Below are positions 16,966 to 58,944 of a stretch of DNA of 64,000 bases, piece after piece. The DNA lies in contig JACZJT010000018.1 of assembly GCA_014860445.1 (NCBI GenBank), positions 13,295 to 77,294 of the forward strand, written 5' to 3'. Numbering within the stretch: position 1 is the first letter of the stretch; each line of letters starts with the position of its first letter. Made by a program: the position numbers and the translations under genes. The stretch is from Burkholderiales bacterium (GTDB lineage Bacteria; Pseudomonadota; Gammaproteobacteria; Burkholderiales; SG8-39). The notes beneath the pieces were generated by a model that did no database searches, was not told where the DNA came from, and saw only the letters and a list, made by a program, of their open reading frames with translations.

Positions 16966-17025
16966 GCTATATATTTGCCGATATTACCCGCGACGCAGGG
17001 ATATTTCAAGCTGTTCGGACACGCC

Positions 17026-18405
17026 TTATGCAATGACCCGGACGCGGGCAGGGGCGACGCCCAGCCCGGCGCCGTCGCGATTCAGCAGGTCGCGCACTGC
17101 CGCGCCGTCAATTTGCCGCGGTGCGAGCTTTTCCCGGAGCGCCAGCGCCGCTGCGTGGCCGATGGCGTGGCCGTAGGAAAAACACTGCGCGGTGACCCGC
17201 GCAGAGGCCATCGCCTCATGCTCGGCGGACAGGCAGCGGCCCGCCGCGAGCAGCGATTCGCCACGCGCGGGCACGAAGCATTCGTAAGGAATTTCGTAGT
17301 AATCGTCGATCAGCCATGAAAGGCGCGGCCTCGCCCCTGCGTGCAACTCGATCGGCCAGGCGGAGCGTGCAATGCCGGTGGCGAACTTTGTGCCGTGCAT
17401 TACGTCGTGGTTTGCCAGCACCGCCGTTCCCGCGATCTGGCGCGACTGGCGCACGCCTACCTGCACACCGGTGTCGTTCACCCAGCTGCGTTCGCAACCT
17501 TGAAGGTGGTCGCGGAAAAAACGCGCATATTCGGATACCTGCTTGCGACCCTCGATTTCCGCCTCGGTAAAGTCGCGTACCAAAATACTATTCAGTTCGC
17601 GCCCGTCTGCACCGGTGATGCGCGTGCAGTTGCACAGCAGTTCGCCCTCGCGCGGCGACGGGAACAGGAAGATCTTGGCGCGAGGCAACCGGTAGCGGCC
17701 CGCGGCATTCAAATCGACGATCTGCTTCGACACGGCCTCGCCTAGGATGGTGTCCGGCCCGTAGGCGGCGGTAAAGCGCGCTACATCCACGCCCTGGATG
17801 CGAAAAATCATGGTTGGATTCTGCACGGTGCCGTCGTGGCCGATGCGCGTCGCAAACCCGGCCATCGCGGCGAGGTCGGCGTCGCCGCTCGCATCCACTG
17901 TGAGCCCGGCTTCGATCTGGAATTTTCCTTGTTTGGTGAACGCCTGCACCCCGGCGACGCGCTCTCCGCCCTCGAGCAGCACTTCCGTAGCAAGCGTATG
18001 GAACAGTACCGTCACCCCGGCGTCGGCGAGCATGGCATCGGCAACGTTGCGCCATGCAAGCGGGTCGTGTACCAGACTGTAGGTCTTGCCGTAGCGCACC
18101 GGGGGAGTAAGGCCGCCGCAGGCGCTCATGCGTTGCGCAAATTCGGCCGCAAAGCCATGCACCAGCTGATCGGGGTTCGCGCCGGGGATATCACTTGCCA
18201 TATACATTCCGCAAATGGTTCCTGACATACCGGCGACGGCGCCGCCACCGCAGAACCCGTAGCGTTCGAGCAACGTGACCTTGACGCCCTGGCGCGCCGC
18301 GGTGATTGCCGCGGCCACCCCTGCAGCGCCACCGCCCACGACGAGCACGTCCGTGCCGATGCGCTCCCGCGGGCGCAGGTCGGTGATGGTGCTGTTCGAA
18401 TTCAT
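17026..18405 (-). CDS. FAD-dependent oxidoreductase
   Basis: 459 aa with AGGAGG upstream. N-terminal dinucleotide fold DVLVVGGGAAGVAAAITAARQG.KVTLLER. Confidence 0.8.
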   Translation of the reverse strand: MNSNSTITDLRPRERIGTDVLVVGGGAAGVAAAITAARQGVKVTLLERYGFCGGGAVAGMSGTICGMYMASDIPGANPDQLVHGFAAEFAQRMSACGGLTPPVRYGKTYSLVHDPLAWRNVADAMLADAGVTVLFHTLATEVLLEGGERVAGVQAFTKQGKFQIEAGLTVDASGDADLAAMAGFATRIGHDGTVQNPTMIFRIQGVDVARFTAAYGPDTILGEAVSKQIVDLNAAGRYRLPRAKIFLFPSPREGELLCNCTRITGADGRELNSILVRDFTEAEIEGRKQVSEYARFFRDHLQGCERSWVNDTGVQVGVRQSRQIAGTAVLANHDVMHGTKFATGIARSAWPIELHAGARPRLSWLIDDYYEIPYECFVPARGESLLAAGRCLSAEHEAMASARVTAQCFSYGHAIGHAAALALREKLAPRQIDGAAVRDLLNRDGAGLGVAPARVRVIA

Positions 18406-18563: not shown

Positions 18564-19259
18564 TTAGAAATCCGCCATCACCGTATCGCGGGTGAATTTC
18601 GCGACGGTATCGATCAGTTTGTCCATCGCCTTGCCCGCCCCCGCCGGGTCGCCGGCGCCGATGGCGCGCGCGATGTCCGCGTGTAACTTGGCGGTGAGCG
18701 GCAGGTCCGCCGCCTGTTTGTAATGGATGTACCAGAAGCGCCGCGACAGCGAGTGCATCAAACTCATGGCACCAGCGGCGAATTCGTTTCGCGCCGCCTT
18801 GACCGAGAACTCGTTGAACTCGCGATCGACGCGCATGAACGCAACATCATCGTTGGTCTTGGCGCTCTTTTCGAATTCGCGCGCAAGTTCGAGGAAGCGC
18901 GTGCGCTCCTCGGCGTTTGCGCGGCGGGCAGCGCTTCTCGCCACCAAGCGCTCCACCTCGCGCCGGACTTCCAGCAGACGCAACTGGCTCTTGATGTTGA
19001 TCTCCGAAACGATGATGCCGCGCCGCGGCAGAATGGTGACCAGGCGCTCGCGCGCGAGGCGCTGCAAAGCCTCGCGTATGGGCGTGCGCCCGATTCCGAG
19101 GCTCTGCGACAGCGCAGTCTCGGACACCGCGCTGCCCGGCAGCAGCGTCAGGGTGACGATCATCTCCTCCAGATCGCGGTAGGCGCGATCAGTGAGCGAA
19201 AGGCCGGCGCCCTTCGTTGTGCGCGCGGGCTTCGTTGCGGTTTTTTTACGCGCGCTCAC
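18564..19259 (-). CDS. GntR family transcriptional regulator (FadR/FCD-type C-terminal domain)
   Basis: 231 aa. The winged-HTH segment ..LPGSAVSETALSQSLGIGRTPIREALQRLARERLV.. is followed by an all-helical effector domain. Its start overlaps the PanB-like stop by 4 nt. Confidence 0.88.
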   Translation of the reverse strand: MSARKKTATKPARTTKGAGLSLTDRAYRDLEEMIVTLTLLPGSAVSETALSQSLGIGRTPIREALQRLARERLVTILPRRGIIVSEINIKSQLRLLEVRREVERLVARSAARRANAEERTRFLELAREFEKSAKTNDDVAFMRVDREFNEFSVKAARNEFAAGAMSLMHSLSRRFWYIHYKQAADLPLTAKLHADIARAIGAGDPAGAGKAMDKLIDTVAKFTRDTVMADF

Positions 19260-20137
19260 TGGTGCTTGCGCTTTTCGATCAGGTCGAGGAATTTTTCATA
19301 CTCCTTTTGGTCCACACCGTAGCTGTGGTCATCGTCCGGGAATGTGCCACCTTTGACGTCTGCAATATAGGCCTTGATGCCGTTGACCGCCACTTCGGTC
19401 AGATTGGCGTAACGCTTGGTGAACTTCGGCTTGAAATCGGTGAACACGCCCAGCAGATCGTGGCACAGCAATATCTGGCCGTCGGTGCCGACGCCGGCGC
19501 CTATGCCTATGGTGGGAATTTCAAGCTGCTGCGAGATCGCCGCCGCGATCTTGGCCGGCACCGCCTCGAACTCGAGCATGAAACAGCCCGCGTCTTGGAT
19601 CGCAAGCGCATCGCCGAGGATTTTCATCGCCGCCTCTGCGCTGCGCCCCTGGATCCTGAAGCCGCCGAACATGGCTATGGTATGCGGTGTGAGGCCGATA
19701 TGCGAGGCGGTGGGAATGCCCGCGTCCACCAGCGCTTTGAGTATGTGCGCCTGGGACTTTCCGCCCTGCGGTTTGACCGCGTCGCTACCGGCCTCCTGCA
19801 TGAAGCGCGTCGCGTTGGTAAGCGCCCGGTCCACAGTATTGTAGCTCTGGTAGGGCATGCATCCGAGCACGAAGGTCGCGGGCGCACCGCGGCGGATGGC
19901 GGCGGCGTGCATGACCATCATGTCCATGGTCGCCGGGATCGTGTTGGGGTGGCCGTGCGCGATCATCGCAAGGCTGTCGCCGACCACGGCAACGTCGACC
20001 CCCGCCGTTTCGGCCCACTTGGCGGCGGTGTAGTCGGGCACCGACATGTACACCATCTTCTCGCCGCTGGTCTTGGAATCGCGGATTTCCTGGATTGTGC
20101 GCTTTTTCCGCTCTGCGCTTGCCGCTGCCTGTGCCAA
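19256..20137 (-). CDS. PanB (ketopantoate hydroxymethyltransferase) family protein, paralogue 2
   Basis: 293 aa. TTG start at 20135-20137, 5 nt after AGGAGG. Sequence ..DYTAAKWAETAGVDVAVVGDSLAMIAHGHPNTIPATMDMMVMHAAAIRRGAP..MPYQSY.. is colinear with 1697-2560. Confidence 0.85.
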   Translation of the reverse strand: MAQAAASAERKKRTIQEIRDSKTSGEKMVYMSVPDYTAAKWAETAGVDVAVVGDSLAMIAHGHPNTIPATMDMMVMHAAAIRRGAPATFVLGCMPYQSYNTVDRALTNATRFMQEAGSDAVKPQGGKSQAHILKALVDAGIPTASHIGLTPHTIAMFGGFRIQGRSAEAAMKILGDALAIQDAGCFMLEFEAVPAKIAAAISQQLEIPTIGIGAGVGTDGQILLCHDLLGVFTDFKPKFTKRYANLTEVAVNGIKAYIADVKGGTFPDDDHSYGVDQKEYEKFLDLIEKRKHQ

Positions 20138-20286
20138 TTTGACCTCCTAGGCTGAGTCTGATATGCAGACAGTATATCAATTGTCTGTCCAGCCGGGCGG
20201 CCGCTCGCCTCGTTATAGGCAGTTTCCGCTGCTCCTGCGCGCCGCGCTTGTTTTGTGTGATTTGATCCAGATCAAATGCATGCCTC

Positions 20287-20303
20287 ATATATCACTGATA
20301 TAT
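20287..20303. promoter_or_regulatory. 17-bp perfect palindrome ATATATCACTGATATAT containing two overlapping near-copies of the TGATATATCA operator (site 4)
   Basis: TCATATATCA (20285-20294) and TGATATATTA (20296-20305) each differ from the consensus by one base. The site lies 51-67 nt upstream of the corrinoid-protein ATG (20354). A weaker half-site region (TGATATGCAGACAGTATATCAA, 20159-20180) sits just upstream of the divergent PanB-like/GntR unit. Confidence 0.5.
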
Positions 20304-20353: not shown

Positions 20354-20989
20354 ATGGCGGACATACTCGAGACGATCAAGGAGAAATGCATCAGGGGCAA
20401 GCGCGTAGAGCTGATCGAAGAGGTGAAACGCGCGCTGGCGGACGGGATCGATGCCAAGACGGTGATGAACGATGCGCTGATCCCGGCGATGTCGGTGGTG
20501 GGCGAAAAATACTCCTCGGGCGAATTCTTCCTGCCGCAGATGATGCTCGGGGCGCGCGCGATGAGCGAGGCGCTGCTGATGCTCAAACCCTACTTGGCGC
20601 AGGGCACTTACGAGAAGAAGGGAAAAGCGGTGGTCGGTACGGTCGCGGGCGATTTCCACGACATCGGCAAGAACATTGTGAAAATCATGCTCGAGGGCGG
20701 AGGCTACGAGGTCGTCGACCTGGGGGTGGACGTGAGCCCCGAAGCTTTCGTCGAGGCGGTGAAGAAGGAGGCGCCACGCTTCATCCTGATGAGTGCGCTC
20801 ATCACCCTCACCATGGACAGCATGCGCAAGACCATCCAGGCGCTGGAAAGCGCGGGGGTGCGCAAACAGGTGATGATCGGCATCGGCGGTGCCCCGGTGA
20901 CGCAGAAGTTCGCCGACGAGATCGGCGCAGACTTTTACGGTTCGGACGCGCACGGCGCCGTCGAGAAGTGCAATCAGTTGATGCACTGA
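20354..20989 (+). CDS. Cobalamin-binding corrinoid protein (MtaC/MtbC/MetH-B12-domain-like)
   Basis: ORF 20276-20989 trimmed to MADILETIKEK.. (ATG 20354). Cap domain ..SSGEFFLPQMMLGARAM.., then GDFHDIG (20648-20668), SALITLTM and IGIGGAPV. Confidence 0.9.
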   Translation: MADILETIKEKCIRGKRVELIEEVKRALADGIDAKTVMNDALIPAMSVVGEKYSSGEFFLPQMMLGARAMSEALLMLKPYLAQGTYEKKGKAVVGTVAGDFHDIGKNIVKIMLEGGGYEVVDLGVDVSPEAFVEAVKKEAPRFILMSALITLTMDSMRKTIQALESAGVRKQVMIGIGGAPVTQKFADEIGADFYGSDAHGAVEKCNQLMH

Positions 20990-21012
20990 GCAACCAGAAA
21001 GGAGATACGCAA

Positions 21013-22089
21013 ATGACGCCCAAGGAAAGAGTGATGACAGCCCTGCACCGCGGCCAGCCCGATCAAGTGCCGTGGGTAGAAAACGAAATCGAGGAAGTGC
21101 TGCAGATCCAGGTCATGGGCGGGCGCACCGACTACACCCCCGGCGAACTGTGCCGCGCATTGGGAATGGACGGATTCGGCTACCATTTCCCCACCGGTCG
21201 AGCGGGTGCCGCCAGCCAGGCGTTGCAGACCTCCACTTCGATGAAGGAATCGTATTATTTTCCGAAGAAAATCACCTTCGACTTCGTACCACCATGGATC
21301 GCCGACATGGGGGTGGAGCCGAGCGGGCGCACTTTCGTCAAGAAAGGCCTGCTCACCGACCGTGATTCGCTCAAACTGTTCGACGAGTTTCTGCCAGACC
21401 CGAATCATCCCGCTCGCTACGAGCAGATAGCGAAATGGATCGAGCAGTACCGCGAGGACTATGCGGTGTACGCGCGCATCCGCCTCGGCACCGCGAGCGC
21501 GATCGAGAGCATGGGGCTGGACGTGTTCTCGCTCATGCTGTACGACGACCCGGACCTGGTGAAAGAGATCCATCTGCGTTTTTCGGAATGGTCAGTTAAG
21601 GTAGTCGAGAACCTGAACAAACTGGACCTCGATTTCTACTGGGCCAACGACGACCATGCCGATACCAAGATGCCCTGGGTCAACATGGAAATGTACGAGG
21701 AATTCTTCTTCCCATACCAGAAAATGGTCGCCGACGCGATGAAGAAACCCTGGGCCTTCCATAGCGACGGCAATTTGTTTCCGATACTCCCCGGACTGAT
21801 CAAACTGGGCATGAACGCCATTCATCCGATCCAGCCGGCCGCGATGGACATCGGCAAAATGAAGGCGGAGTACGGATCCCGTGTGTGCCTGATCGGCAAT
21901 ATCGACCTCGATTACACCCTGACCCTCGGCACGCCAGAGGAAGTGGACCAGGAGGTGAAGGAACGCATCGCGGCTGCCGGCAAGGGCGGCGGCTACATGA
22001 TCAGCAGCGCCAACAGCCTGACCGACTACTGCAAGATCGACAATGTCTGGGCGATGTCCAAGGCGTTGAAGAAATACGGCAAATACTGA
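21013..22089 (+). CDS. Uroporphyrinogen decarboxylase (URO-D) family methyltransferase (substrate:corrinoid or methylcorrinoid methyltransferase-like)
   Basis: The long ORF 20305-22089 overlaps the corrinoid gene; the real start is the ATG at 21013 after AAAGGAG (MTPKERVMTALHRGQPDQVPWVENE..). URO-D/MtaA-like fold signature. In the positions where the fusions have Cys, this protein has ..WAFHSDGN.. and ..NAIHPIQP... Confidence 0.82.
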   Translation: MTPKERVMTALHRGQPDQVPWVENEIEEVLQIQVMGGRTDYTPGELCRALGMDGFGYHFPTGRAGAASQALQTSTSMKESYYFPKKITFDFVPPWIADMGVEPSGRTFVKKGLLTDRDSLKLFDEFLPDPNHPARYEQIAKWIEQYREDYAVYARIRLGTASAIESMGLDVFSLMLYDDPDLVKEIHLRFSEWSVKVVENLNKLDLDFYWANDDHADTKMPWVNMEMYEEFFFPYQKMVADAMKKPWAFHSDGNLFPILPGLIKLGMNAIHPIQPAAMDIGKMKAEYGSRVCLIGNIDLDYTLTLGTPEEVDQEVKERIAAAGKGGGYMISSANSLTDYCKIDNVWAMSKALKKYGKY

Positions 22090-22096
22090 GGCCACC

Positions 22097-22894
22097 ATGC
22101 TAATTGTTGCTGAACGCGTCAACGCCTCTCGCAAGGCGATCCGTGCTGCGCTGGAAACACTCGACGCCGCCGCGATCGCAAACGAGGTGCGCATCCAGGC
22201 CGCTGCCGGTGCGCACTACATCGACGTGAACGGCGGCACTTTCCCCGGCCGCGAAGCCGAACTGCTTTGCTGGCTGGTGGACATCGCGCAAGCGGAAACG
22301 CAACTGCCGCTGTGTCTCGACAGCCCGGACCCCCAGGCGCTGGTCGCCGCGCTGCCGCGCATCAAGGGCGAGCGGCCGATGATCAATTCGATCAACCTGG
22401 AACCCGAGCGCTTCGAAAAAATCCTTCCGCTTGCCCGCCAATACAATGCAAAACTCATTGCGCTGGCTCAGGGAGAGGGCGTGCCCGCCTCCACCACCGT
22501 GGAAAAAGTCGAGCTCGCCACGCGCCTGGTCGAGCAGTTGCTCAAGGGCGGCATGGTGCTTGACGACATTTACGTCGATCCGCTGGTATTTCCGGTGGGC
22601 ACCGACTCCACTTCGGCCCTTGCCACGGTGACGGCCATGCGCGAAATCATGGCGCGATTTCCCGGCGTGCACACGATCTGCGGGCTGACCAATGTTTCCC
22701 ACGGCCTGCCGGCGCGCAAACTCATCAACCGCAGCTTCCTCGCCGGCGCGATCGCCAATGGAATGGACGCGGCCATTATCGATCCCACCGATCCCCTGCT
22801 GATGGCCACGCTGCTGGGCGCGGAGGCGGTTTTCGGCCGTGACGAATACTGCATGAATTTGATCGAAGCGTTCCAGGACGGCAAGCTCGCCTGA
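22097..22894 (+). CDS. Pterin-binding methyltransferase (methyltetrahydrofolate:corrinoid methyltransferase; MetH-Fol/AcsE/MtrH/CmuB-like)
   Basis: 265 aa. Sequence MLIVAERVNASRK.., ..YIDVNGG.., ..LCLDSPD.., ..MINSINLE.., ..ICGLTNVSHGLPARKLINRSFLAGAIANGMDAAIIDP.. matches pterin-binding TIM-barrel motifs. Confidence 0.85.
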   Translation: MLIVAERVNASRKAIRAALETLDAAAIANEVRIQAAAGAHYIDVNGGTFPGREAELLCWLVDIAQAETQLPLCLDSPDPQALVAALPRIKGERPMINSINLEPERFEKILPLARQYNAKLIALAQGEGVPASTTVEKVELATRLVEQLLKGGMVLDDIYVDPLVFPVGTDSTSALATVTAMREIMARFPGVHTICGLTNVSHGLPARKLINRSFLAGAIANGMDAAIIDPTDPLLMATLLGAEAVFGRDEYCMNLIEAFQDGKLA

Positions 22895-22931
22895 GCCGGC
22901 CGGCTCGCGCTGAGCTCACCCGTCTACAGCC

Positions 22932-24827
22932 ATGACGAAGCCTGAGCCCAAGGCCGGCGGAATCGGCGTCTCCTTTCTGCCCGATTCGCGCCAGACACAG
23001 GTGGCCGAAGGCGACCATCTTTTGCTGGCCGCATTGAAAGCCGGCGTAGGCATCAAGTCGGTGTGCGGCGGGCGCGGCAAATGCGGTTCCTGCCTGGTAG
23101 AGCTTGAACCGGCGGACGCAGCGGCGCTCTCCCCCGCCGGCGACGAAGAAATCGCGCTGCTGCCCCCCGCGCGCGAGGGAAAATATTATCGCCTGGCCTG
23201 CATGGCCAAAGTGCGCGGCGCGCTGCGCGTGGCCATCCCGCCCGAGAGCCAGGCGCTGAAAAGCCCGCCGCGCAAGCCCTACACCGTGACCCGCATCGCA
23301 CTCGCGCCTGCGGTGAAACGCGTGGCGCTGGATGTCGAAGGGGCCTACGTCGAGCCGCTGCGGCCGCTTGCCACGCGCATCACCGCTGCGCTCGCGCGCG
23401 CCGGGCAAGGCAAGGTCGAACTGCCGCTCGCTGCGCTCGCCGAATTTTCCCACGAGCCTGATTTCGATTCGAGCAAGGACGTCAGCGCCACGATTCAGAA
23501 CCGGCGGGTGCTGCAACTCAGCCGCGGCAAGCCGCGGACGCTGTACGGCCTCGCGCTGGACATCGGCACCACCTCGATCGTTGTATTCCTGTGCAATCTC
23601 GAGCGCGGCGACATCGCCGCCGTGCGCACGGCAAGCAACCCGCAGGCCGCCTACGGCGAGGACGTGATATCGCGCATGACGCATATCTACAGCGACGTGG
23701 CGATGCTCGCCACGCTGCAAAAGCTGCTGGTCGACGAAATCAACCGCATGGTCGCGGATGCGGCGCAGGAAGCGGGCGTTGCACTGGCGGACATCGCCGA
23801 TGCAGTGGTGGTGGGCAACCCGACCATGCAGCATATCCTGCTCGGCATTAATCCAGCGCCGCTGGGCCGTGGCCCCTATCTGCCTGTGCTGTGCGATGGC
23901 GTGGAGGTGGAAGCAGCGAGCATGGGACTGGCAATGATGCCGCGGGCACCGGTGTTCGTGCTTCCCATGCCTGCCGGATACATCGGCGGCGATACGGTTT
24001 CGGCAGTCCTCACGCGTGGGCCGGAGTTCTATCGCGGCAACAACCTGCTGGTGGATATCGGCACCAACGGCGAAGTGGTGCTGGCAAAGGACGGGGTCCT
24101 GACGGCGACCTCCTGCGCCACCGGGCCGGTGTACGAGGGCGCGCACATCGCCTGCGGCGTGCGCGCGGCCCCGGGCGCGATCGAGCGGGTCTGGGTCGAA
24201 GACGGCCGCAATCTGCGCTGGGCGGCGATACCGCCGGACGGCGAGCGCGACAAGCGTCCGGTGGGCCTGTGCGGCTCGGGGGTCATTTCCACCGTCACCG
24301 CACTAGCCGGCGCCGGCCTGATCGGCAGCGACGGCGCCTTCGCCGCCGCCGGATCGCATCCGCGCATTCGCGCATCGGCGAAAACGCGCCAGCTCGAAGC
24401 ACTACTGGTGCCGGGAATGGGCAGCCGCACCGGACGCGACATCGTGTTCACCCAGCAGGACGTGCGCGCGGTGCAGCTGGGCAAGGCCGCCCTGCGCGCC
24501 GGCATCGAGATACTCCTGCGCGAAGAAGGCGTGACGCAACTCGATCACATCTATCTTGCCGGCACCTTCGGCAATCATCTCGAACCGCGCGACATCGTCG
24601 CCATCGGCCTGGTGCCGCCGCTGCCGGTCGAGCGCATCGAATCCATAGGCAATGCCGCCGGCGATGGTGCGCGCATGGCGCTGTTCAACCGACGCGAGCG
24701 GCGCCGCGCGCACAAACTGGCGCACTCCATGCGGGTGGTGGAGCTGTCGAACCGTGCCGATTTCCAGGACATGTTCGTCGCGGCCACAGAACTGTCCGAC
24801 GCAACCATCGACCTCGAGGGAGCATAG
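22932..24827 (+). CDS. Corrinoid reductive activator (RACE-type): N-terminal plant-type 2Fe-2S ferredoxin domain plus ASKHA ATPase domain
   Basis: 631 aa. The ferredoxin part is ..SVCGGRGKCGSCLVEL..YRLACMAKV... The large C-terminal ASKHA-like part includes ..YGLALDIGTTSIV.. and ..LLVDIGTNGEVVL... Confidence 0.82.
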   Translation: MTKPEPKAGGIGVSFLPDSRQTQVAEGDHLLLAALKAGVGIKSVCGGRGKCGSCLVELEPADAAALSPAGDEEIALLPPAREGKYYRLACMAKVRGALRVAIPPESQALKSPPRKPYTVTRIALAPAVKRVALDVEGAYVEPLRPLATRITAALARAGQGKVELPLAALAEFSHEPDFDSSKDVSATIQNRRVLQLSRGKPRTLYGLALDIGTTSIVVFLCNLERGDIAAVRTASNPQAAYGEDVISRMTHIYSDVAMLATLQKLLVDEINRMVADAAQEAGVALADIADAVVVGNPTMQHILLGINPAPLGRGPYLPVLCDGVEVEAASMGLAMMPRAPVFVLPMPAGYIGGDTVSAVLTRGPEFYRGNNLLVDIGTNGEVVLAKDGVLTATSCATGPVYEGAHIACGVRAAPGAIERVWVEDGRNLRWAAIPPDGERDKRPVGLCGSGVISTVTALAGAGLIGSDGAFAAAGSHPRIRASAKTRQLEALLVPGMGSRTGRDIVFTQQDVRAVQLGKAALRAGIEILLREEGVTQLDHIYLAGTFGNHLEPRDIVAIGLVPPLPVERIESIGNAAGDGARMALFNRRERRRAHKLAHSMRVVELSNRADFQDMFVAATELSDATIDLEGA

Positions 24828-24830
24828 AAC

Positions 24831-26264
24831 ATGCTGGCATTGCGGCGCTGGTCGGTACGGCACTCGGGAACGCTGGAGTATTTCTACAAGCGCTTCAGTT
24901 CGTTCATGGCCTATTGCGCACCCGCATTTCGCAAACTGGGTTTCGCCCGCGTCGAACGCGTCGTGATCCCGTTCGAGCGCAGCGTAAAGCGCCTGATGTT
25001 CGATTGCCACATGTGCGGTGTGTGCCTGCTATCCAAGAACGGCATGTCCTGCCCGATGAATTGCCCCAAGTCCGTGCGCAATGGGCCCTGCGGCGGCGTG
25101 CGCGAAGACGGCAGCTGCGAGGTCGATCCGGAAATGCAATGTGTCTGGGTCGAAGGCTGGCTGGGCACGCAGGGCATGAGCGAGGGCGCCTTGTCGCCGC
25201 TGCCCAATGCGCCTGCGAATGCGCGCTTCGCCGGCAGTTCGAGCTGGATGCGCCTCGCGCGCGGCGAGCATGGGCCGGCGCCGCTGTCCGGGGCGCCGAC
25301 GACGGCGACCGACAGTGGTTTTGAGCGCCTCCTCGAGAGCGGGGGCTTCGCCGTTACCGCCGAATTTTCCCCGCCGGATTCGGCCGACCCGGCGGAGGTA
25401 TTCGCCCACCTGGATCACTTCCGCGGCAACGTGGACGCGATCAACGTCACCGACGGCAGCGGCGCCAATTGCCACATGTCCAGCCTCGGCGTATCCGCGC
25501 TGTTGATGCAGGCGGGCTTCGAGCCGGTGATGCAGATTACCTGCCGCGACCGAAACCGCATCGCCATCCAGGGAGACATACTCGGCGCGGCGGCTCTGGG
25601 TATACGCAATCTGCTTTGCCTCACCGGCGACAGCACGCTGGTGGGCGATCATCCCGATGCCAAGCCGGTGTGCGATCTGGACAGCATGTCACTGCTGCAG
25701 ACGGCGCGCGTCATGCGCGACGAAAGCCGCTTTCTTTCCGGCAGAAAACTGAACTCGGTGCCGCGGCTGTTCCTTGGCGGGGCCGACAATCCGTTTGCGC
25801 CGCCCCACGGCATGCGACCGATGCGGCTTGCACGCAAGATTGCAGCCGGTGCGCAGTTCATCCAGACGCAATACTGCTTCGACCTGGCGCTGCTTGAGTC
25901 CTATATGCGGCGGGTGCGCGACGAAGGCCTGCACGAGCGCTGCCATATCATCATCGGCGTCGGCCCCATCGGCTCGGCGAAAACCGCCCGCTGGCTGCGC
26001 AGCAAGGTGCCGGGGGTTCATATTCCCGACGACGTCATCAGGCGGCTGGAACATGCGGCCGATCCGCGCTTGGAGGGCCGCAATATCTGCATCGAGATGA
26101 TCCAGGCGATACGCGCGATACCGGGCATCGCCGGCGTGCATATCATGGCCACGCGCCAGGAACACCAGATTCCCGATATCGTGCGCGAGTCGGGCGTGCG
26201 CGAAGGGCGCAAACTTGCGCAACCCGCGGCGGACGCAGATCGCGCCACTGCACCAATACACTGA
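24831..26264 (+). CDS. Methylenetetrahydrofolate reductase with N-terminal MetV-like (MTHFR_C) Cys-rich zinc-ribbon domain (MetV-MetF fusion)
   Basis: 477 aa; the ATG lies 3 nt after the activator stop. The N-terminus has FDCHMCGVCLLSKNGMSCPMNCPKSVRNGPCGG. The MTHFR TIM barrel begins about aa 165 (..GGFAVTAEFSPP.., ..DAINVTDGSGA.., ..MQITCRDRNRIAIQGD.., ..NLLCLTGD..). Confidence 0.85.
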   Translation: MLALRRWSVRHSGTLEYFYKRFSSFMAYCAPAFRKLGFARVERVVIPFERSVKRLMFDCHMCGVCLLSKNGMSCPMNCPKSVRNGPCGGVREDGSCEVDPEMQCVWVEGWLGTQGMSEGALSPLPNAPANARFAGSSSWMRLARGEHGPAPLSGAPTTATDSGFERLLESGGFAVTAEFSPPDSADPAEVFAHLDHFRGNVDAINVTDGSGANCHMSSLGVSALLMQAGFEPVMQITCRDRNRIAIQGDILGAAALGIRNLLCLTGDSTLVGDHPDAKPVCDLDSMSLLQTARVMRDESRFLSGRKLNSVPRLFLGGADNPFAPPHGMRPMRLARKIAAGAQFIQTQYCFDLALLESYMRRVRDEGLHERCHIIIGVGPIGSAKTARWLRSKVPGVHIPDDVIRRLEHAADPRLEGRNICIEMIQAIRAIPGIAGVHIMATRQEHQIPDIVRESGVREGRKLAQPAADADRATAPIH

Positions 26265-26273
26265 ACGCCGGCC

Positions 26274-27002
26274 ATGGCCAACCAACCCACCGTAATCATC
26301 GCCTGCCGCGTGATGCAGGAACATCTGCAGAAGCTGCTGCCGTCGGACTCTCCGGTGACCTACATGGACATCACCCTGCACAACACGCCCAAGAAGCTCG
26401 CCGCGGCGCTGCAGGCGGAGATCGACGCGATCGCGCAACCGAGCACCATCATCGTCGGCTACGGCCTGTGCGGCAACGGGCTGCTGGGCGTAAAGTCCGG
26501 CCCGCATACGCTGGTCATCCCGCGCACACACGACTGCGTCGCCATCTTCCTCGGTTCGCACCAACGCTACGTCCAGCGCTTTTTCGCCAATCCGAACACC
26601 TATTACCTGACCCGCGGCTGGCTGGACGCAAAAGACGAACCGCTGCAGGACTATCTGGATTACGTGCGCGACTACGACGAGGAGACGGCGGACTATTTGG
26701 TGGAAATGAAATACCGGCACTATCGAAAGCTCACCATGGTCGGTTTCTCGCAGCAGGAACTGGACGAGTGCCGGCCGATGGCGATGCGCGTGGCCGAGTT
26801 CTGCGCCAAGCGCTGGAATATGGAATACGAAGAAATCGTCGGCTCCACCGTACTTCTGGAAGCGCTGCTGAAGATGCCGGACCAACTCGATTCGAGCAAT
26901 GCCGAATTCGTGGTGCTGAAACCGGGTGAAGAGATCCAGGTAGAGATGTTCCTGCAGGAAGGCGATCCCGTTCCTGTGCAGACCCCGGGCAGGGACAATT
27001 AG
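26274..27002 (+). CDS. DUF1638 domain protein
   Basis: 242 aa. Sequence MANQPTVIIACRVMQEHLQKLLP...GYGLCGNGL..PRTHDCVAIFLGS.. is the DUF1638 pattern. This family is typically encoded next to corrinoid methyltransferase genes. Confidence 0.7.
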   Translation: MANQPTVIIACRVMQEHLQKLLPSDSPVTYMDITLHNTPKKLAAALQAEIDAIAQPSTIIVGYGLCGNGLLGVKSGPHTLVIPRTHDCVAIFLGSHQRYVQRFFANPNTYYLTRGWLDAKDEPLQDYLDYVRDYDEETADYLVEMKYRHYRKLTMVGFSQQELDECRPMAMRVAEFCAKRWNMEYEEIVGSTVLLEALLKMPDQLDSSNAEFVVLKPGEEIQVEMFLQEGDPVPVQTPGRDN

Positions 27003-27017: not shown

Positions 27018-27344
27018 CTATACCACCGCATCGACCTCGCGCGCGGCCCGGATTATTCGCATGATCTCGACACAATTGCCGCGGGTGCGATAGTAGATCA
27101 CATAGCGCTGAAACAGCAAACTGCGGATTCCATCCTGCAATTCTTGGCGCGGCGGGCCCATTTCCGGATGCAGGGTCAGCATTTGACACACCTGCTCGAA
27201 CTGATCGACGAAATTGCCGGCCGCAATCAGATGCTCTGTATTCGTCGAGCCAAACCGGTCGTCTGGCATCGCGATCGTCTCCCAAATGCCATTGAGATCC
27301 GCGCAAGCTTGAAACGTGAATTGCAGTCTGCTCAATGCCGTCAT
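27018..27344 (-). CDS. parE: Type II toxin, ParE/RelE family
   Basis: 108 aa with ..FQACADLNGIWETI.. and ..YVIYYRTRGNCVEIMRIIRAAREV... It overlaps the upstream antitoxin gene by 4 nt. Confidence 0.8.
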   Translation of the reverse strand: MTALSRLQFTFQACADLNGIWETIAMPDDRFGSTNTEHLIAAGNFVDQFEQVCQMLTLHPEMGPPRQELQDGIRSLLFQRYVIYYRTRGNCVEIMRIIRAAREVDAVV

Positions 27345-27598
27345 TCGATGCGCTCGGCGGCTTTTCTGCGAAGGGTGCGAAAAACCTCCAAGGCGTCGAT
27401 CAACTGGCGGGTGTTCGCCTGGTCGATGCCGTTCGCAATTTCCTTCAACAGTCTGTTTGTCCGAAGTGCCCGCGTCTGATCGCGTTCTTCCAGCAGGATA
27501 AGCGCTTCCTGAATCACTTGGGCGTAAGACTCATACAGGCCGGATTCGAATTTCTCACGGACGATAGCGACAGCGTCGGGCGGCAACCAAATATTCAT
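27341..27598 (-). CDS. parD: Type II antitoxin, ParD family (ribbon-helix-helix)
   Basis: 85 aa. MNIWLPPDAVAIVREKFESGLYESYAQVIQEALILLEERD.. is ParD-like. It sits immediately upstream of and overlaps parE. Confidence 0.78.
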   Translation of the reverse strand: MNIWLPPDAVAIVREKFESGLYESYAQVIQEALILLEERDQTRALRTNRLLKEIANGIDQANTRQLIDALEVFRTLRRKAAERIE

Positions 27599-27600: not shown

Positions 27601-28584
27601 CTAATCGGATCTTGTATCAGGAACGGTGGTGATCTTTACCGGTCCGAGTATCTTCTGGATATCGTCGTAGCTCGGGGCAGGTTCCTTGGGTCGGCTCGCA
27701 AGCGCATCGCTCATGCTCCTGATGTGCTGCGCCGTGGTACCGCAGCAGCCACCGATGATTCTCGCGCCGGCGTCGCGGGCCATGCATGCGTAGATGCCCA
27801 TGATTTCGGGATTGCCGTTGTAGCTGACGCGCATTTCGCTATCGAGCACCGGAATGCCGCAGTTGCTCTTGGCAACGACGATGGCATCGCTTTCCGCACC
27901 GCGGACCAGGCCGATGACCGAATCCATGAGCTGCGCCGGGCCGACGCCGCAATTGGCGCCGAAGGCGATGGGCTTGAACGCCGAATTCCTGATGCGGCGC
28001 ATTGCGCCCTCTGGGGTTTCGCCCATCATGGTGCGCCCACCGCTATCGAATGTCATGGTTGCAACGTACGCAAGGCCCGCGCGGTGCACACCCCGGATCG
28101 CGGCGTCCAATTCGTTGTCCGCTATCATGGTTTCGATCCAGGCGATGTCGACACCGCCTTCCTTCAAGGCCTGCGCCTGCTCGAAAAACGCGTCCTCCGC
28201 CTCTACGACGGTGCGCGTGCCGAACGGTTCCAGGATGTCGCCGATCGGCCCCATGTCGCCGGCGATGACGATGGGCCGTCCCGCTTTGTCGGCGACCGCT
28301 CGCGCAATCTTTGCCGCGGCCACGTTGAACTCGCGCGCGCGCTCGGCCAATTTGTGCAATCCGAGGCGATAGCGATTCGCGCCAAAGGTGTTGGTTAGCA
28401 GTATATCGGAGCCGGCATCGACGAAACCCCTGTGCACATTCGCAACCAGGTCCGGATACTCGACATTCCAGAGTTCGCCGGAGGACCGATTGTCCATTCC
28501 AAGCTGCATAAGGCTGGTCCCCATTGCGCCATCCGCAAGCACCACATCCTTCTGCTCAAGCAGACGGGAGAGCACGTTACTCAT
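27601..28584 (-). CDS. Homocysteine S-methyltransferase domain protein (stand-alone MetH-Hcy/BHMT-like module)
   Basis: 327 aa with ..VLADGAMGTSL.., ..DILLTNTFGAN.., ..FGANCGVGP.. and ..IIGGCCGTT.. (the Zn-Cys motifs of the Hcy-binding barrel). Confidence 0.85.
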   Translation of the reverse strand: MSNVLSRLLEQKDVVLADGAMGTSLMQLGMDNRSSGELWNVEYPDLVANVHRGFVDAGSDILLTNTFGANRYRLGLHKLAERAREFNVAAAKIARAVADKAGRPIVIAGDMGPIGDILEPFGTRTVVEAEDAFFEQAQALKEGGVDIAWIETMIADNELDAAIRGVHRAGLAYVATMTFDSGGRTMMGETPEGAMRRIRNSAFKPIAFGANCGVGPAQLMDSVIGLVRGAESDAIVVAKSNCGIPVLDSEMRVSYNGNPEIMGIYACMARDAGARIIGGCCGTTAQHIRSMSDALASRPKEPAPSYDDIQKILGPVKITTVPDTRSD

Positions 28585-28702
28585 TGCCGGTTCCTAGGTG
28601 AAAATGCATCGAGTAACATTATGCCTTTTTTTGGCAATAGCGTGGATTCAGTGACCGGTTTTTGGCCGCGAACGCCGAAGCGTCCATTGACGGAACAGCG
28701 TT

Positions 28703-28972
28703 CTACTCTTTCTTCGCGAGAAATACGACAGCGCCCTGCGACCCGGCGCGCTCCGCATGCATGACATTTGCGGCAAGGTTGCAACACTCGCCGGTCTGAA
28801 ATACATCCTTTCGGTCTTCAAATTGCAGAGCAAATTCTCCTTCAGTAACCAGCAGCGTTACTGCGAAGTTATGTGTGTGCAATGGGCCGTCAAGATCAGA
28901 GGCGTAGTGTTTGGTTTGAAAATCGGCGAATCCGTTCGCAATCGCCTGTGCACGAAATTCTGACTCAGTCAT
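28703..28972 (-). CDS. Small cupin domain protein
   Basis: 89 aa. ..GPLHTHNFAVTLLVTEGEFAL..FQTGECCNLAANVMHAERAG.. shows the two cupin motifs. Confidence 0.65.
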   Translation of the reverse strand: MTESEFRAQAIANGFADFQTKHYASDLDGPLHTHNFAVTLLVTEGEFALQFEDRKDVFQTGECCNLAANVMHAERAGSQGAVVFLAKKE

Positions 28973-29272
28973 TATTTGACCTTTAGGTTAAGTAGCCGAG
29001 ATTACTTGTATTTGTCAGTTTGTTTTGTTGGGTGGATTTGGCGCTCGAATTTCAACCCACCCGGCTTTCGGCGGACTATGGTAGTGCCCGAAGCTGGCAG
29101 TGACGCTCAACAAGACCCCTAACTGGGGCCGTATAAGACCGTAAATGTGGCGTCGTGCACGATCATATTACGTCCAAACCGTTGTTTCCTCAACCATACG
29201 CCTATCAAGATAGGCACCTGCACACTCAAACAATCTAGGTGCCTCTTGCATGTCTATCAATTATTTCCGGCC

Positions 29273-29515
29273 CTACCCGTTTCGCTTTTCGTCATGCTCG
29301 GCGATGATCCGAGCCAACTCCGGTTCCACTCCGTTCCTGCCAAACTCACCTGGGAACATTTTCCTGAACACCGCGAATCTTTCCGCCGGCAAACTCAATT
29401 CGGCAGACTCCAACACCCGCCGCTTGTGGGTGTTCAAAGCTTCGCAGATGGCGTACAGCACCATCATTGCCCCGGCTCGATCAGTTTCATGCGCTTCTCC
29501 ATCTCGGTCTGCCAC
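29273..29515 (-). CDS. Hypothetical small protein in the AT-rich patch (uncertain)
   Basis: 80-aa ORF from a GTG start; the internal part MMVLYAICEALNTHKRRVLESAELSLPAERFAVFRKMFPGEF.. looks helical. I see no recognisable family and no clear RBS. Neighbouring frames hold short broken ORFs. Confidence 0.25.
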   Translation of the reverse strand: MADRDGEAHETDRAGAMMVLYAICEALNTHKRRVLESAELSLPAERFAVFRKMFPGEFGRNGVEPELARIIAEHDEKRNG

Positions 29516-29940
29516 CTGAACGGATCATGCAGTCCGTCAGACTATTGGTGGAGCCGCCTCAACGCACCAGCCTTGGAGATCGCCGCTTGCCCGAGGCTGT
29601 GTTTCCAGGCTCTTAAGCCAGCCATATCCTTCGGAAGCGCACTCTGGTACAATGCTCGCTCCCTGCACGGCGCAAATTTGTATAAGGCAATGTTTTCGTG
29701 GAAAAATTTCGATAAGCTCGTTTTTTCTGCGTATTCCTACCGAAATCGATTAACGGAAATATGCGGTTTTGAAACCGGTCGAATATCCATCCGACCATAA
29801 ATTTTTTAACTTTGTATTTCAATATATTACAACAAATATTTAACCTAAATTATAGGTTTGTGAGGTCGCTGCGCTGGAGTAAGCGCAGGTAGATTTCGTC
29901 CTTCGCCGGCATACCTTCATATTCGCAAGGAGTACTACAG

Positions 29941-30186
29941 ATGTACGCAGCCCCGATCCTGCAATACCTCAAAAAGAACGGCCAGCAACTCGATCTGGAG
30001 ATCGCAGCCGCAACGGGAATTCCACTTCCCAAGGTGCGCATTTCCCTCTCGGACCTGTCGGCTCGCGGCGAAATATCACGGTGCAGCGTTACGCGGTACA
30101 ACAACGGCAAGGCGGTTGAGGGCATGCTCTGCCGGATTGCGGGGACTATTCCGCCCAAGACACCGGGCAGAAAACCCGGCAGCTGA
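29941..30186 (+). CDS. Small winged-helix DNA-binding protein (hypothetical)
   Basis: 81 aa with AAGGAG 7 nt upstream of the ATG. ..ILQYLKKNGQQLDLEIAAATGIPLPKVRISLSDLSARGEISR.. is an HTH/wHTH-like pattern. A 10-bp-stem hairpin follows at 30210-30232. Confidence 0.55.
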   Translation: MYAAPILQYLKKNGQQLDLEIAAATGIPLPKVRISLSDLSARGEISRCSVTRYNNGKAVEGMLCRIAGTIPPKTPGRKPGS

Positions 30187-58932: not shown

Positions 58933-58944
58933 ACTGAATAATTC

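Follow-up and report, generated by a model that had tools for sequence, protein, structure and literature searches.

The DNA analysed here is a stretch of 64,000 nt, referred to as the window, from an uncultured groundwater bacterium of the Burkholderiales, an O2-using Betaproteobacterium whose nucleotide sequence is about 90% identical to that of a MAG from Hainich groundwater. Six open reading frames are packed on the plus strand in the order corrinoid protein, MT1, MT2, RACo-type activator, MetV-MetF fusion and DUF1638 protein (Table 1), and the intergenic gaps in this order are 23, 7, 37, 3 and 9 nt. The initial annotation had described six genes on one strand with gaps of 3–37 nt and had assigned the components MT1, corrinoid protein, MT2 and activator. 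Both points were reproduced, but MT1 had been named first and the actual order begins with the corrinoid protein, followed by MT1 and MT2. No frameshift was found in the six genes, and promoter-like or terminator-like sites within the operon did not rise above the chance level. The operon is intact and encodes B12-dependent methyl transfer together with its own repair enzyme.

Table 1. Coordinates of the operon, its upstream sites and the neighbouring island genes in the window.
Feature	Position	Strand	Description
Corrinoid protein, 211 aa	20354–20989	+	B12 cap domain and Rossmann domain; PF02607 and PF02310 (B12-binding_2 and B12-binding)
MT1, 358 aa	21013–22089	+	UroD-fold methyltransferase, uncharacterised clade; PF01208 (URO-D)
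MT2, 265 aa	22097–22894	+	Pterin-binding methyltransferase, methyl-corrinoid/tetrahydrofolate; PF00809 (Pterin_bind)
RACo-type reductive activator, 631 aa	22932–24827	+	PF00111 (Fer2), PF17651 (Raco_middle) and PF14574 (RACo_C_ter)
MetV-MetF fusion, 477 aa	24831–26264	+	PF12225 (DUF5981, MetV) and PF02219 (MTHFR)
DUF1638 protein, 242 aa	26274–27002	+	PF07796
FNR/FixK-type box TTGATCCAGATCAA	20262–20275		Exact TTGAT-N4-ATCAA match
Second exact FNR-type box TTGATGTGCATCAA	16095–16108		Some 114 nt before the start codon of fusion B
Perfect palindrome ATATATCA-C-TGATATAT	20287–20303		Candidate operator
panB2 (19256–20137) and GntR/FCD regulator gene (18564–19259)	18564–20137	-	4-nt overlap; divergent from the operon
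Homocysteine (Hcy) S-methyltransferase domain protein, 327 aa	27601–28584	-	MtgE/'Bhmt'-like; PF02574
Fusion protein B, 639 aa	14068–15987	-	Divergent UroD-like and corrinoid-binding domain, CmuA-like architecture
Fusion protein A	7874–9811	-	52% identity to fusion B
PhyH3	9844–10764	-	PhyH-family Fe(II)/2-oxoglutarate dioxygenase; PF05721

The same operon with an identical order of the MT1, MT2, RACo, MetVF and DUF1638 genes was found in 26 related MAG loci of GTDB. The corrinoid-protein gene lies upstream in 25 of the 26, and five further loci carry a permuted order. In 17 related loci, a PhyH3 homologue (71–76% identity) comes immediately 3' of DUF1638 in the same orientation and is the seventh operon gene. 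In anaerobes (Desulfosporosinus, Thermodesulfobacteriota and Syntrophaceae), the genes of MT2, DUF1638, MT1 and the corrinoid protein stay clustered. MT1, the corrinoid protein and MT2 are thereby shown to be one functional unit.

The corrinoid protein carries DxHxxG (GDFHDIG, 20648–20668), SxL (SAL, residues 147–149) and GG (GIGG, residues 176–179). Of the solved structures, it is nearest to the Moorella cobalamin-binding protein 1Y80 (E 3e-50), with 7XCN and 4JGI ranking next, and it scored 208 bits against the NCBIfam MtgC models, under their cut-off of 370. MT2 reached 281.6 bits against PRK07535 of NCBIfam (cut-off 259). Among solved proteins, MT2 matches best to 4O0Q (E 1e-53), MT II of the O-demethylase from Desulfitobacterium hafniense, and less well to AcsE/MeTr (1e-42) and MetH (1e-30). 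The activator is annotated as ATP-dependent; a 2Fe-2S ferredoxin domain forms its N-terminal part and is followed by a middle domain and an ASKHA ATPase domain. Its 2Fe-2S motif CGGRGKCGSC occupies residues 45–54 with the fourth Cys at residue 90, and the ASKHA phosphate motifs DIGTT and DIGTNGE are found at residues 210 and 375. All of these motifs had been cited in the initial annotation, with GDFHDIG at exactly the right position. The activator aligns over its full length to RACo of Carboxydothermus hydrogenoformans (3ZYY, E 1.7e-85), and it forms a separate clade with roughly 32–38% identity to RACo, to the anaerobe-linked activators and to the activators of Paracoccus and Azoarcus. The next protein had been labelled 'MetF'. 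The reductase is present, but the label misses a MetV-MetF fusion on a single polypeptide, a type known from acetogens. A Cys-rich MetV domain (nine Cys, residues 29–104) precedes the methylene-THF reductase barrel, and the two are fused in the relatives as well. The MetF part is 58–60% identical to the stand-alone MetF of the Paracoccus and Azoarcus modules, and only distant solved MTHFRs matched. The DUF1638 protein is an accessory protein of corrinoid methyltransferase systems. It had no match among the PDB sequences, and its AF2 model (pLDDT 80) found no credible fold neighbour (top TM-score 0.31). Its invariant motifs are GYGLCG (residues 62–67), where the G of the following NG is invariant too, and PRTHDC (residues 83–88).

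MT1 presumably moves the methyl group from the substrate onto the corrinoid. The nearest fold of its AF2 model (pLDDT 85) is MtaA, 4AY7 (TM 0.68–0.71), and then UroD. H250-S-D252 and N334 of MT1 align to the zinc ligands of MtaA, H-x-C and C. Asp and Asn thus stand in place of the zinc-thiolate ligands, which argues against a thiol or thioether as substrate. Our best guess for the substrate, at low confidence, is a methyl ether derived from a small organic acid or a sugar acid. The MT1 homologues are 60–97% identical across the best 80 GTDB loci, anaerobes included, and no cultured proteobacterial host was found among these 80. Across phyla, the identity of MT1 (60–70%) is the highest of the components, against 53–57% for the corrinoid protein and 40–53% for MT2. 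This rank is unusual for a substrate-specific subunit and counts against the reading preferred below. So does the observation that some close MT1 homologues are solitary: they adjoin a TctC, MFS or TRAP transporter gene and lack any corrinoid protein within 10 kb.

Upstream of the operon, the box TTGATCCAGATCAA lies between the panB2-gntR genes and the corrinoid-protein gene, and its centre is 85.5 nt before the ATG of the latter. Two exact FNR-type matches were observed in the window, where 0.07 were expected. The box is conserved in alignment A3, in which the flanks are not alignable. An exact box appeared in 12 of 49 related upstream regions (0.02 in shuffles), and one with up to one mismatch in 23 of the 49 (0.48 in shuffles). 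From its conservation, control at low oxygen seems more likely than constant O2 stress, and the sites before both the operon and the fusion B gene suggest a low-oxygen regulator. The frequent oxidation of Co(I) proposed earlier was not established; the conserved boxes point to low oxygen instead. On the other hand, the box could act in repression or could bind another CRP/FNR-family member, which counts against the preferred reading. No CRP/FNR-family regulator gene was found within the window. The palindrome ATATATCA-C-TGATATAT overlaps the likely -10 region, and its variants are located at 16958–16974, upstream of the FA_hydroxylase gene, and at 13952–13968, upstream of dctP. Three matches with up to three mismatches were present in the window against 0.06 expected, and a related motif was found in 20 of 49 relatives. 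The GntR/FCD protein is a candidate regulator of the island. PanB2-type homologues with 82–97% identity occur in at least 15 related loci.

The surroundings are catabolic in character, with TRAP and ABC transporters, the GntR regulator and operator-like palindromes common to three transcription units. The binding protein of the TRAP system most closely resembles those for keto acids and lactate. The neighbours of fusion A are an ABC transporter of the sugar type and two genes for PhyH proteins. The N-terminal 430 residues of fusion B match URO-D (E 6e-4), and this protein is probably served by MT2 and the activator. The H-x-D...H motif is intact in all three PhyH proteins of the island, and its FA_hydroxylase has three His boxes. 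This upholds the link to O2-requiring genes drawn in the initial annotation, and the 17 loci in which PhyH follows DUF1638 make it stronger than could be recognised there. That interpretation as a whole was partly supported: the link stood, whereas the view of the aerobic setting as little studied is outdated and frequent oxidation of Co(I) was not established.

We consider it fairly probable that the locus encodes a self-contained O-demethylase-type corrinoid methyl transfer, with the steps, shared parts and low-oxygen expression as follows. MT1 would transfer the methyl group of an imported methylated compound to Co(I) of the corrinoid protein, and MT2 would pass it from methyl-Co(III) to tetrahydrofolate. 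The MetV-MetF fusion would oxidise methyl-THF to methylene-THF, which feeds C1 metabolism. Each time the cofactor lapses into the inactive Co(II) form, the RACo-type activator would bind it, and its 2Fe-2S cluster and ATP hydrolysis would drive an electron uphill to restore Co(I); DUF1638 may help to maintain this state. The two CmuA-like fusions most likely use this one MT2, activator and reductase as well, and methyl-corrinoid is probably drained to homocysteine too, as an alternative outlet towards methionine, via the adjoining MtgE-like protein. Expression is probably governed by an FNR/FixK-type regulator at low O2 and by a substrate-responsive repressor on the shared palindrome. In that case, low oxygen tension would be the condition under which the co-encoded dioxygenases and the O2-sensitive Co(I) chemistry operate together. 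This reading is supported because the cofactor motifs of all four canonical components are intact, and because MT2 and the corrinoid protein are nearest to 4O0Q and to 1Y80, 7XCN and 4JGI, with an MtaA/UroD fold for MT1. The retained gene order, the catabolic setting and the conserved FNR-type boxes support it as well. Observed directly are the domains, the motifs, the synteny and the conserved DNA sites; the way the methyl group flows, the sharing with the fusions, the regulator and the substrate are inferred. Functional analogy comes from two aerobic bacteria. In corrinoid-dependent betaine demethylation by Ruegeria pomeroyi, MetF2, encoded beside a pterin methyltransferase, is the most induced protein, and in aerobically grown Phaeobacter inhibens the RamA-like and DUF1638 mutants are methionine auxotrophs (PMC5764234). 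The earlier proposal of a role for the activator in air is in line with these published fitness data.

The direction of MetVF and MT2 is not readable from their sequences, which counts against the reading above. As its primary role, the operon is unlikely to provide a split, cobalamin-dependent methionine synthase of the kind seen in Phaeobacter and Ruegeria. MetVF would make methyl-THF, MT2 would load the corrinoid protein, and the Hcy methyltransferase would form methionine, with RACo and DUF1638 reactivating the cofactor and MT1 as an optional side entry for methyl groups. The MtgE-like gene 600 nt downstream favours this route, since its product exceeds the PRK07534 cut-off of NCBIfam (398 against 338 bits) and keeps the zinc Cys triad (ANCG, GGCCG). 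However, homologues lie within 10 kb in only four of about 31 operon loci (L004, L023, L031 and L044), and the gene is convergent with the operon and not co-transcribed. MT1 is the constant and best-conserved operon member, the corrinoid protein is far under the MtgC cut-offs, and the activator is about 35% identical to Mtg-type activators and in a separate clade. Moreover, the operon is part of an island of transporter, regulator and hydroxylase genes among which operator-like sites are shared.

It is much less probable that MT1 is a dehalogenating methyltransferase for halomethanes such as chloromethane, in a Cdm/Cmu-like system of (micro)aerobic soil and groundwater bacteria. Halomethane pathways, such as that of the cmu cluster, typically include a MetF of their own, and one is present here. 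Both fusions have the CmuA architecture. Among PDB sequences, MT1 matches best to CdmB (profile E 3.8e-12), which transfers methyl from chloromethane in Acetobacterium dehalogenans and is zinc-free like MT1 (PMC13222342). However, this match is restricted to 140 residues at the C-terminus, and the fold of MT1 as a whole is more like those of MtaA and UroD. The MtaA/CmuA family model was not reached by MT1 (52.8 against 235.4 bits) and had no match in the fusions. In many lineages TRAP, ABC, TctC and MFS importer genes flank the MT1 homologues; a gas needs none, so non-gaseous substrates are indicated. Least probable of all is a biosynthetic direction from methyl-THF, made by MetVF, through MT2, the corrinoid protein and MT1 to an acceptor metabolite: the UroD-fold MtaA (structurally closest to MT1) and MtbA are methyl-corrinoid:acceptor transferases, MT2-type enzymes are reversible (R. 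pomeroyi MtgD is bidirectional) and a universal acceptor would fit the very high conservation of MT1, but the zinc-thiolate site with which MtaA activates its thiol acceptor is not retained, no biosynthetic gene cluster is nearby, and catabolism fits the transporter- and regulator-rich surroundings and co-located degradative enzymes.

A module of corrinoid protein, pterin methyltransferase, MetF2, RamA-like activator and DUF1638 has been described in aerobic Proteobacteria (Price 2018; Mausz 2025; PMC5764234; PMC12478193), and it is annotated on plasmids of Paracoccus aminovorans and Azoarcus sp. KH32C. The initial view of a little-studied setting is thus outdated as far as genetics is concerned. 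The MtgBCD(E) hub of P. inhibens, R. pomeroyi and these plasmids shares with the present operon the corrinoid protein, the pterin methyltransferase, a MetV/MetF-type reductase, the ferredoxin-ASKHA activator, DUF1638, a nearby MtgE-like homocysteine methyltransferase and O2-using hosts. In contrast to the hub, the substrate methyltransferase here has a UroD fold and is not of the MttB family, MetV and MetF are fused, and all genes stand in a single operon. The corrinoid protein, MT2 and activator are only 32–39% identical to those of the plasmid modules, both of which lack the FNR-type boxes. The O-demethylases of anaerobes (D. hafniense, Odm/Vdm of A. dehalogenans, Mtv of Moorella) and Cdm likewise combine a UroD-superfamily MT I, a corrinoid protein, a pterin-binding MT II and a RACE-type activator, and the nearest structures of MT2 and the corrinoid protein reflect this likeness. 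However, MT1 falls in a separate clade and matches CdmB in its C-terminal part but no other MT I structure, the host is an O2-using Betaproteobacterium, and the operon adds MetVF, DUF1638 and, in relatives, the PhyH dioxygenase. The activator is collinear with RACo/AcsV and keeps the Cys pattern and phosphate motifs, but it is about 32% identical and scores 335 bits against the AcsV cut-off of 800. The CODH/ACS context is absent, and the client is a small methyltransferase corrinoid protein rather than CoFeSP. The CmuA/CmuB chloromethane pathway of aerobic methylotrophs has in common the aerobic host, a corrinoid methyl route to THF and a dedicated MetF, and the layout of methyltransferase then corrinoid domain recurs in the two fusions; the differences are the fusions' failure to match the family model and the presence here of a separate corrinoid protein, RACo activator and DUF1638. 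Aerobic bacteria are already known to have this kind of system, but the MT1 clade, which has no characterised member, is new. An uncharacterised substrate-binding enzyme and a conserved control site of the low-oxygen type distinguish the present version.

The six genes of the operon stand head to tail, with intergenic gaps of 23, 7, 37, 3 and 9 nt, and were assigned to families with Pfam and NCBIfam (table below). No promoter- or terminator-like site above chance was found within the operon. The corrinoid protein carries the DxHxxG motif at residues 100–105 (GDFHDIG, 20648–20668), SxL as SAL at residues 147–149 and GG at residues 176–179. In the activator, CGGRGKCGSC is joined by a fourth Cys at residue 90, and both DIGTT and DIGTNGE were identified. 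The initial annotation had described a six-gene operon, and this description was borne out with every motif that it cited, GDFHDIG exactly in place. Its list of components also stands, with two corrections: the corrinoid-protein gene is the first of the operon, and the gene called MetF encodes a MetV-MetF fusion. The operon is real, intact and conserved.

Positions of the operon genes, neighbouring genes and candidate control sites
Feature	Position	Strand	Description
PanB, second paralogue	1691-2560	+	in island; above panB equivalog cut-off
Fusion protein A	7874-9811	-	UroD-like, B12 cap and B12-binding domains
PhyH	9844-10764		dioxygenase
TRAP solute-binding protein	12801-13892	-	
Palindrome variant	13952-13968		before TRAP dctP
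Fusion protein B	14068-15987	-	639 aa; domains as in fusion protein A
FNR-type box	16095-16108		upstream of fusion protein B
Palindrome variant	16958-16974		before FA_hydroxylase gene
FAD-dependent oxidoreductase	17026-18405	-	flavoprotein, PF12831
PanB paralogue (PanB2)	19256-20137	-	divergent from operon; above panB equivalog cut-off
FNR-type box	20262-20275		upstream of operon
Palindrome	20287-20303		upstream of operon
Corrinoid protein	20354-20989	+	211 aa; B12-binding_2 + B12-binding (PF02607 + PF02310)
MT1 (substrate methyltransferase)	21013-22089	+	358 aa; URO-D family, PF01208 E 4e-19
MT2 (pterin-binding methyltransferase)	22097-22894	+	265 aa; PF00809; PRK07535 above cut-off
Activator	22932-24827	+	631 aa; Fer2 + Raco_middle + RACo_C_ter (PF00111 + PF17651 + PF14574)
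MetV-MetF	24831-26264	+	477 aa; Cys-rich MetV domain (PF12225) fused to MTHFR barrel
DUF1638	26274-27002	+	242 aa; PF07796
ParE toxin gene and small upstream partner	27018-27598	-	
Homocysteine S-methyltransferase-domain protein	27601-28584	-	MtgE-like
Weak cupin match	28703-28972		
NAD-specific glutamate dehydrogenase	35921-40831	-	1636 aa
Three-tRNA cluster	58859-59156	-	

The proteins were compared with solved structures and family models. MT2 is nearest to the O-demethylase MT II of Desulfitobacterium hafniense (4O0Q, E 1e-53), followed by AcsE (1e-42) and MetH (1e-30). The corrinoid protein is nearest to Moorella 1Y80, with the trimethylamine and O-demethylase corrinoid proteins (7XCN, 4JGI) coming next. 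The sequence of MT1 matched only MtaA and the C-terminal third of CdmB, a recently described chloromethane methyltransferase, and reached 52.8 bits against the MtaA/CmuA model TIGR01463 (cut-off 235.4). Its AF2 model (pLDDT 85) superposed best on MtaA (4AY7, TM 0.68–0.71) and then on UroD. In a profile alignment, the zinc ligands of MtaA, H-x-C (H-I-C) and a third Cys, face H250-S-D252 and N334 of MT1, and both facing positions are invariant in 20 homologues. Therefore, MT1 does not keep the thiol-activating zinc site. The activator aligned over its whole length with RACo of Carboxydothermus hydrogenoformans (3ZYY, E 1.7e-85) and scored 335 bits against the AcsV/RACo family NF040756 (cut-off 800); no acs or cdh gene was present among the scanned ORFs of the window. 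It forms a separate clade, 56–93% identical within operon-bearing loci and 32–38% identical to RACo, to anaerobe-linked activators and to those of the corrinoid modules on Paracoccus and Azoarcus plasmids. DUF1638 had no sequence match in the PDB. Its fold is confidently predicted as alpha/beta (AF2, pLDDT 80), and Foldseek returned no credible neighbour (best TM-score 0.31); weak structural matches to chelatases and thioesterases were dismissed as noise. GYGLCG, with the G of the following NG, and PRTHDC are its invariant motifs.

Relatives were collected by scanning one genome per GTDB species, which gave 80 loci at 60–97% MT1 identity, and their synteny was surveyed by tblastn with the proteins of the window. 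MT1 homologues number in the hundreds, nearly all unnamed. Most of the 80 loci belong to uncultured Burkholderiales, other Betaproteobacteria and Hyphomicrobiaceae from groundwater and soil; Thermodesulfobacteriota, Syntrophaceae, Chloroflexota, Neomoorella, Desulfosporosinus and Desulfotomaculum are also represented. The order MT1, MT2, RACo-type activator, MetVF, DUF1638 is kept in 26 loci, with the corrinoid-protein gene upstream in 25 of them, and is permuted in five more. Homologues of the fusion proteins, FA_hydroxylase, PanB2 and the flavoprotein recur upstream, and the TRAP transporter is also present in relatives (in L039 and L050 judged by ORF sizes only). In the anaerobe loci, the genes for MT2, DUF1638, MT1 and the corrinoid protein are clustered and the reductase is not nearby; most have no activator within 10 kb. 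Since this clustering is kept in anaerobes, MT1, the corrinoid protein and MT2 form one conserved unit, to which the activator, the reductase and, in most cases, a dioxygenase have been added in the proteobacterial version. Between phyla, MT1 is more strongly conserved than its partners. Close MT1 homologues (65–77% identical) also occur alone beside a TctC, MFS or TRAP gene, with no corrinoid protein within 10 kb (L002/L020, 10001–11077; L005 and L065, near 10000), and several genomes carry two or three MT1 paralogues.

Oxygen-dependent genes lie near the operon. On the minus strand upstream of it, divergent, lie the PanB paralogue, a GntR/FCD regulator, the PF12831 flavoprotein and a di-iron FA_hydroxylase. 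Beyond them come fusion protein B, the TRAP transporter, the PhyH dioxygenase and fusion protein A. Farther still, another PhyH accompanies a sugar-type ABC transporter, and the third PhyH and the second PanB follow. The initial annotation had linked the operon to genes requiring O2, and the active sites agree with it: H-x-D...H is kept in the PhyH proteins and the His boxes in FA_hydroxylase. A LigB-type dioxygenase and a GMC oxidoreductase lie farther along the window. With all these genes intact or present, it is therefore concluded that the host uses O2. One PhyH protein matched a 'chlorinating enzyme' model; a halogenase was ruled out because the H-x-D carboxylate is kept. Moreover, a homologue of the PhyH next to fusion protein A (71–76% identical) directly follows DUF1638 on the same strand in 17 loci. 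The two fusion proteins are 52% identical to each other, and their homologues recur in more than 20 related loci. In both, a divergent domain of the UroD type (Pfam URO-D, E ~1e-4) precedes the B12 cap and B12-binding domains, and both share an H-x-D-G-(E/N) motif with MT1. This layout, a methyltransferase domain and then a corrinoid domain, is that of CmuA; the fusion proteins did not match the MtaA/CmuA model TIGR01463 at E <= 0.01.

Regulators of the FNR/FixK/Dnr branch of the CRP family, which respond to low oxygen or nitric oxide, have TTGAT-N4-ATCAA as their site. The divergent promoter region of 216 nt contains an exact box of this type, TTGATCCAGATCAA, and, 12 nt past it, a perfect palindrome, ATATATCAcTGATATAT. 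Exact FNR-type boxes occur twice in the window against 0.07 expected. The palindrome (ATATATCA-N-TGATATAT) has three matches against 0.06 expected; two of them are variants before the FA_hydroxylase gene and the TRAP operon, and their positions suggest one regulon across the island. Assignment of the palindrome to the GntR/FCD regulator was not adopted, as it bears no likeness to the usual GT-N-AC core, and it is kept as a candidate only. When six related upstream regions were aligned, box and palindrome formed a conserved block between flanks that do not align. Within 300 nt of the corrinoid-protein start, 12 of 49 related loci have an exact box and 23 have one with at most one mismatch; dinucleotide shuffling predicts 0.02 and 0.48 over the 49 loci, respectively. 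The fetched loci, 1.35 Mb in all, hold 23 exact boxes, of which these 12 are about half; distant loci differ in the central spacer. Neither the anaerobe loci nor the two plasmid modules have such a box. An A/T-rich hexamer (GATATA/TATATT) lies about 29–31 nt past the centre of the box, a spacing compatible with a class II FNR-activated promoter, in which the box is centred near −41.5 from the transcription start. No CRP/FNR regulator gene is present in the window. The box is not at odds with the link to dioxygenases and suggests that the whole island is tuned to low oxygen tension.

The window is chromosomal because PNPase, RbfA, DksA and three tRNA genes are on board. A plasmid or known-genome origin was rejected on these genes and on a megablast of the operon against PLSDB, which gave no match. 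A 1636-aa glutamate dehydrogenase gene and the clustered tRNAs are ordinary chromosomal content. Rfam matched these three tRNAs only, with no cobalamin riboswitch or other RNA upstream of the operon. In nucleotide sequence, the window is ~90% identical to a contig (L008) that belongs to a Burkholderiales MAG recovered from Hainich groundwater. The exact activator protein has a single record, on an assembled contig from a public sequencing run. The PF12831 oxidoreductase is missing in L008, the closest relative, where the flanking genes are contiguous; many loci that are more distant have ~65% identical homologues of it. PanB2-type homologues, 82–97% identical, occur in at least 15 related loci. 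PanB uses the methylene-THF that MetV-MetF produces, and the two may be functionally linked. The closest relatives of the TRAP solute-binding protein are TRAP proteins that bind keto acids or lactate (7UG8, 2ZZV/7E9Y, 2HZK; E 1e-41 to 1e-32), which hints at a 2-oxo or 2-hydroxy monocarboxylate. Downstream of the operon, the ParE pair is followed by the homocysteine S-methyltransferase-domain gene; a similar pair adjoins that gene in a distant relative (L004, 5271–5818), on the other side of the operon. The stretch 28000–30000 has a G+C of 0.53 against ~0.60 and holds short ORFs without a family match apart from the weak cupin match.

Corrinoid methyltransferase systems have long been regarded as markers of strict anaerobes. 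Since 2018, methionine synthesis and betaine demethylation in aerobic marine bacteria have been shown to run on such systems. In Phaeobacter inhibens grown aerobically, methionine is made by a three-part methionine synthase; ferredoxin-DUF4445 (RamA-like) and DUF1638 proteins are needed as well, and these two co-occur across Alphaproteobacteria (Price et al. 2018, PMC5764234). In aerobic Ruegeria pomeroyi, the same corrinoid protein, MtgC, and pterin methyltransferase, MtgD, also serve glycine betaine demethylation by the MttB-family MtgB; induction was seen for MetF2, RamA and DUF1638, and the 'Bhmt' homologue is the homocysteine module MtgE (Mausz et al. 2025, PMC12478193). The initial remark that a RACE-type activator in an O2-using host is little studied is therefore outdated genetically, given these two studies and the annotated plasmid modules. 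In the literature found on aerobic systems, no aerobe's activator has been characterised biochemically.

The most likely mechanism, which we favour with moderate confidence, is as follows. An imported compound would donate a methyl group, which MT1 would transfer to Co(I) of the corrinoid protein; MT2 would pass it on to THF and MetV-MetF would oxidise the methyl-THF. The activator would rescue Co(II) with ATP and its 2Fe-2S cluster, assisted by DUF1638. The two fusion proteins are probably also served by MT2, the activator and the reductase, and the MtgE-like protein can probably draw off methyl groups for methionine. On the other hand, the operon could be chiefly an anabolic split methionine synthase, a reading that recalls P. 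inhibens and the MtgE-like neighbour; it is considered unlikely. A halomethane system would fit the partial match of MT1 to CdmB and the CmuA-like layout of the fusion proteins. However, the adjoining importers (TRAP, TctC, MFS, Liv-type ABC) speak for an organic or sugar acid rather than a gas, and this possibility is quite improbable. A reversed, methylating direction of the same steps is the least probable of all. For the preferred demethylating route, the loss of the zinc-thiolate site in MT1 also argues against a thioether substrate. Reading the substrate from the neighbours of the anaerobe copies was abandoned, as the hints do not converge on one compound. In Desulfosporosinus paludis (L084, 6376–17300), a sigma-54 PAS regulator precedes MT2, DUF1638, MT1 and the corrinoid protein, and DmpF/DmpG-like aldolase-dehydrogenase, SDR and GlcD/GlcF-like genes follow. 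A PocR-AraC regulator and a TRAP transporter are found in Neomoorella, and an MFS gene in Moorella naiadis.

We tentatively propose that the operon may be the core of a low-O2 demethylation pathway. An FNR-type promoter would drive co-transcription of the O2-sensitive corrinoid system and Fe(II)/2-oxoglutarate dioxygenases. Both would attack the same methylated organic acids, a class so far unrecognised, and the C1 unit would leave through MetV-MetF and possibly the PanB-like paralogues. Among uncultured Burkholderiales and Hyphomicrobiaceae of groundwater and soil, such a pathway would be widespread, and the MT1 clade would represent a new substrate specificity that anaerobes share. New features are the uncharacterised MT1 clade, the fused reductase, the conserved FNR-type site and, in relatives, a dioxygenase as part of the operon; nothing was found in the literature on this MT1 clade or on an association of corrinoid proteins with PhyH. 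The locus adds a second class of substrate methyltransferase, with the UroD fold, in (micro)aerobic Betaproteobacteria of freshwater and soil. All the parts, among them the repair enzyme, the reductase and DUF1638, lie in one small operon and could be expressed as a unit. The FNR-type site, the dioxygenase gene joining the operon in relatives and the unusually conserved MT1 offer handles on how Co(I) chemistry copes with oxygen and on a route, as yet unassigned, by which methyl groups are turned over in aquifers and soils. If the substrate is ordinary, for example a methoxylated aromatic acid, the locus would simply be another member of a known system.

The operon can also be compared with known systems. 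The corrinoid protein, UroD-superfamily MT I and pterin-binding MT II of the O-demethylase-type three-component system are all present, together with its 2Fe-2S and ASKHA ATPase activator. With the MtgBCDE hub (split methionine synthase) of aerobic Proteobacteria, the operon shares the pterin methyltransferase with adjacent MetF2, the RamA-like (Fer2 + DUF4445) activator and DUF1638. MtgE (PF02574) has its counterpart in the homocysteine S-methyltransferase-domain protein, which passes the 'betaine-homocysteine methyltransferase' model PRK07534 (398 bits, cut-off 338) with an intact zinc Cys triad. In contrast, MttB-family MtgB (PF06253) occurs in no scanned ORF of the window, MT1 being PF01208, and the MtgC type is not matched by the corrinoid protein (NF047996, 208.5 against 370 bits; NF047995, 166 against 310 bits). 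The same set of pterin methyltransferase, MetF, ASKHA activator and DUF1638 recurs in the modules on plasmids of Paracoccus aminovorans and Azoarcus sp. KH32C, where a corrinoid protein and MetV are also annotated and an MttB-family gene or betaine transporter genes adjoin. The operon is a variation on a known kind: it follows the O-demethylase plan of MT I, corrinoid protein, MT II and activator, joined to the accessory set of aerobic Proteobacteria (MetV/MetF, DUF1638 and the MtgE-like protein).
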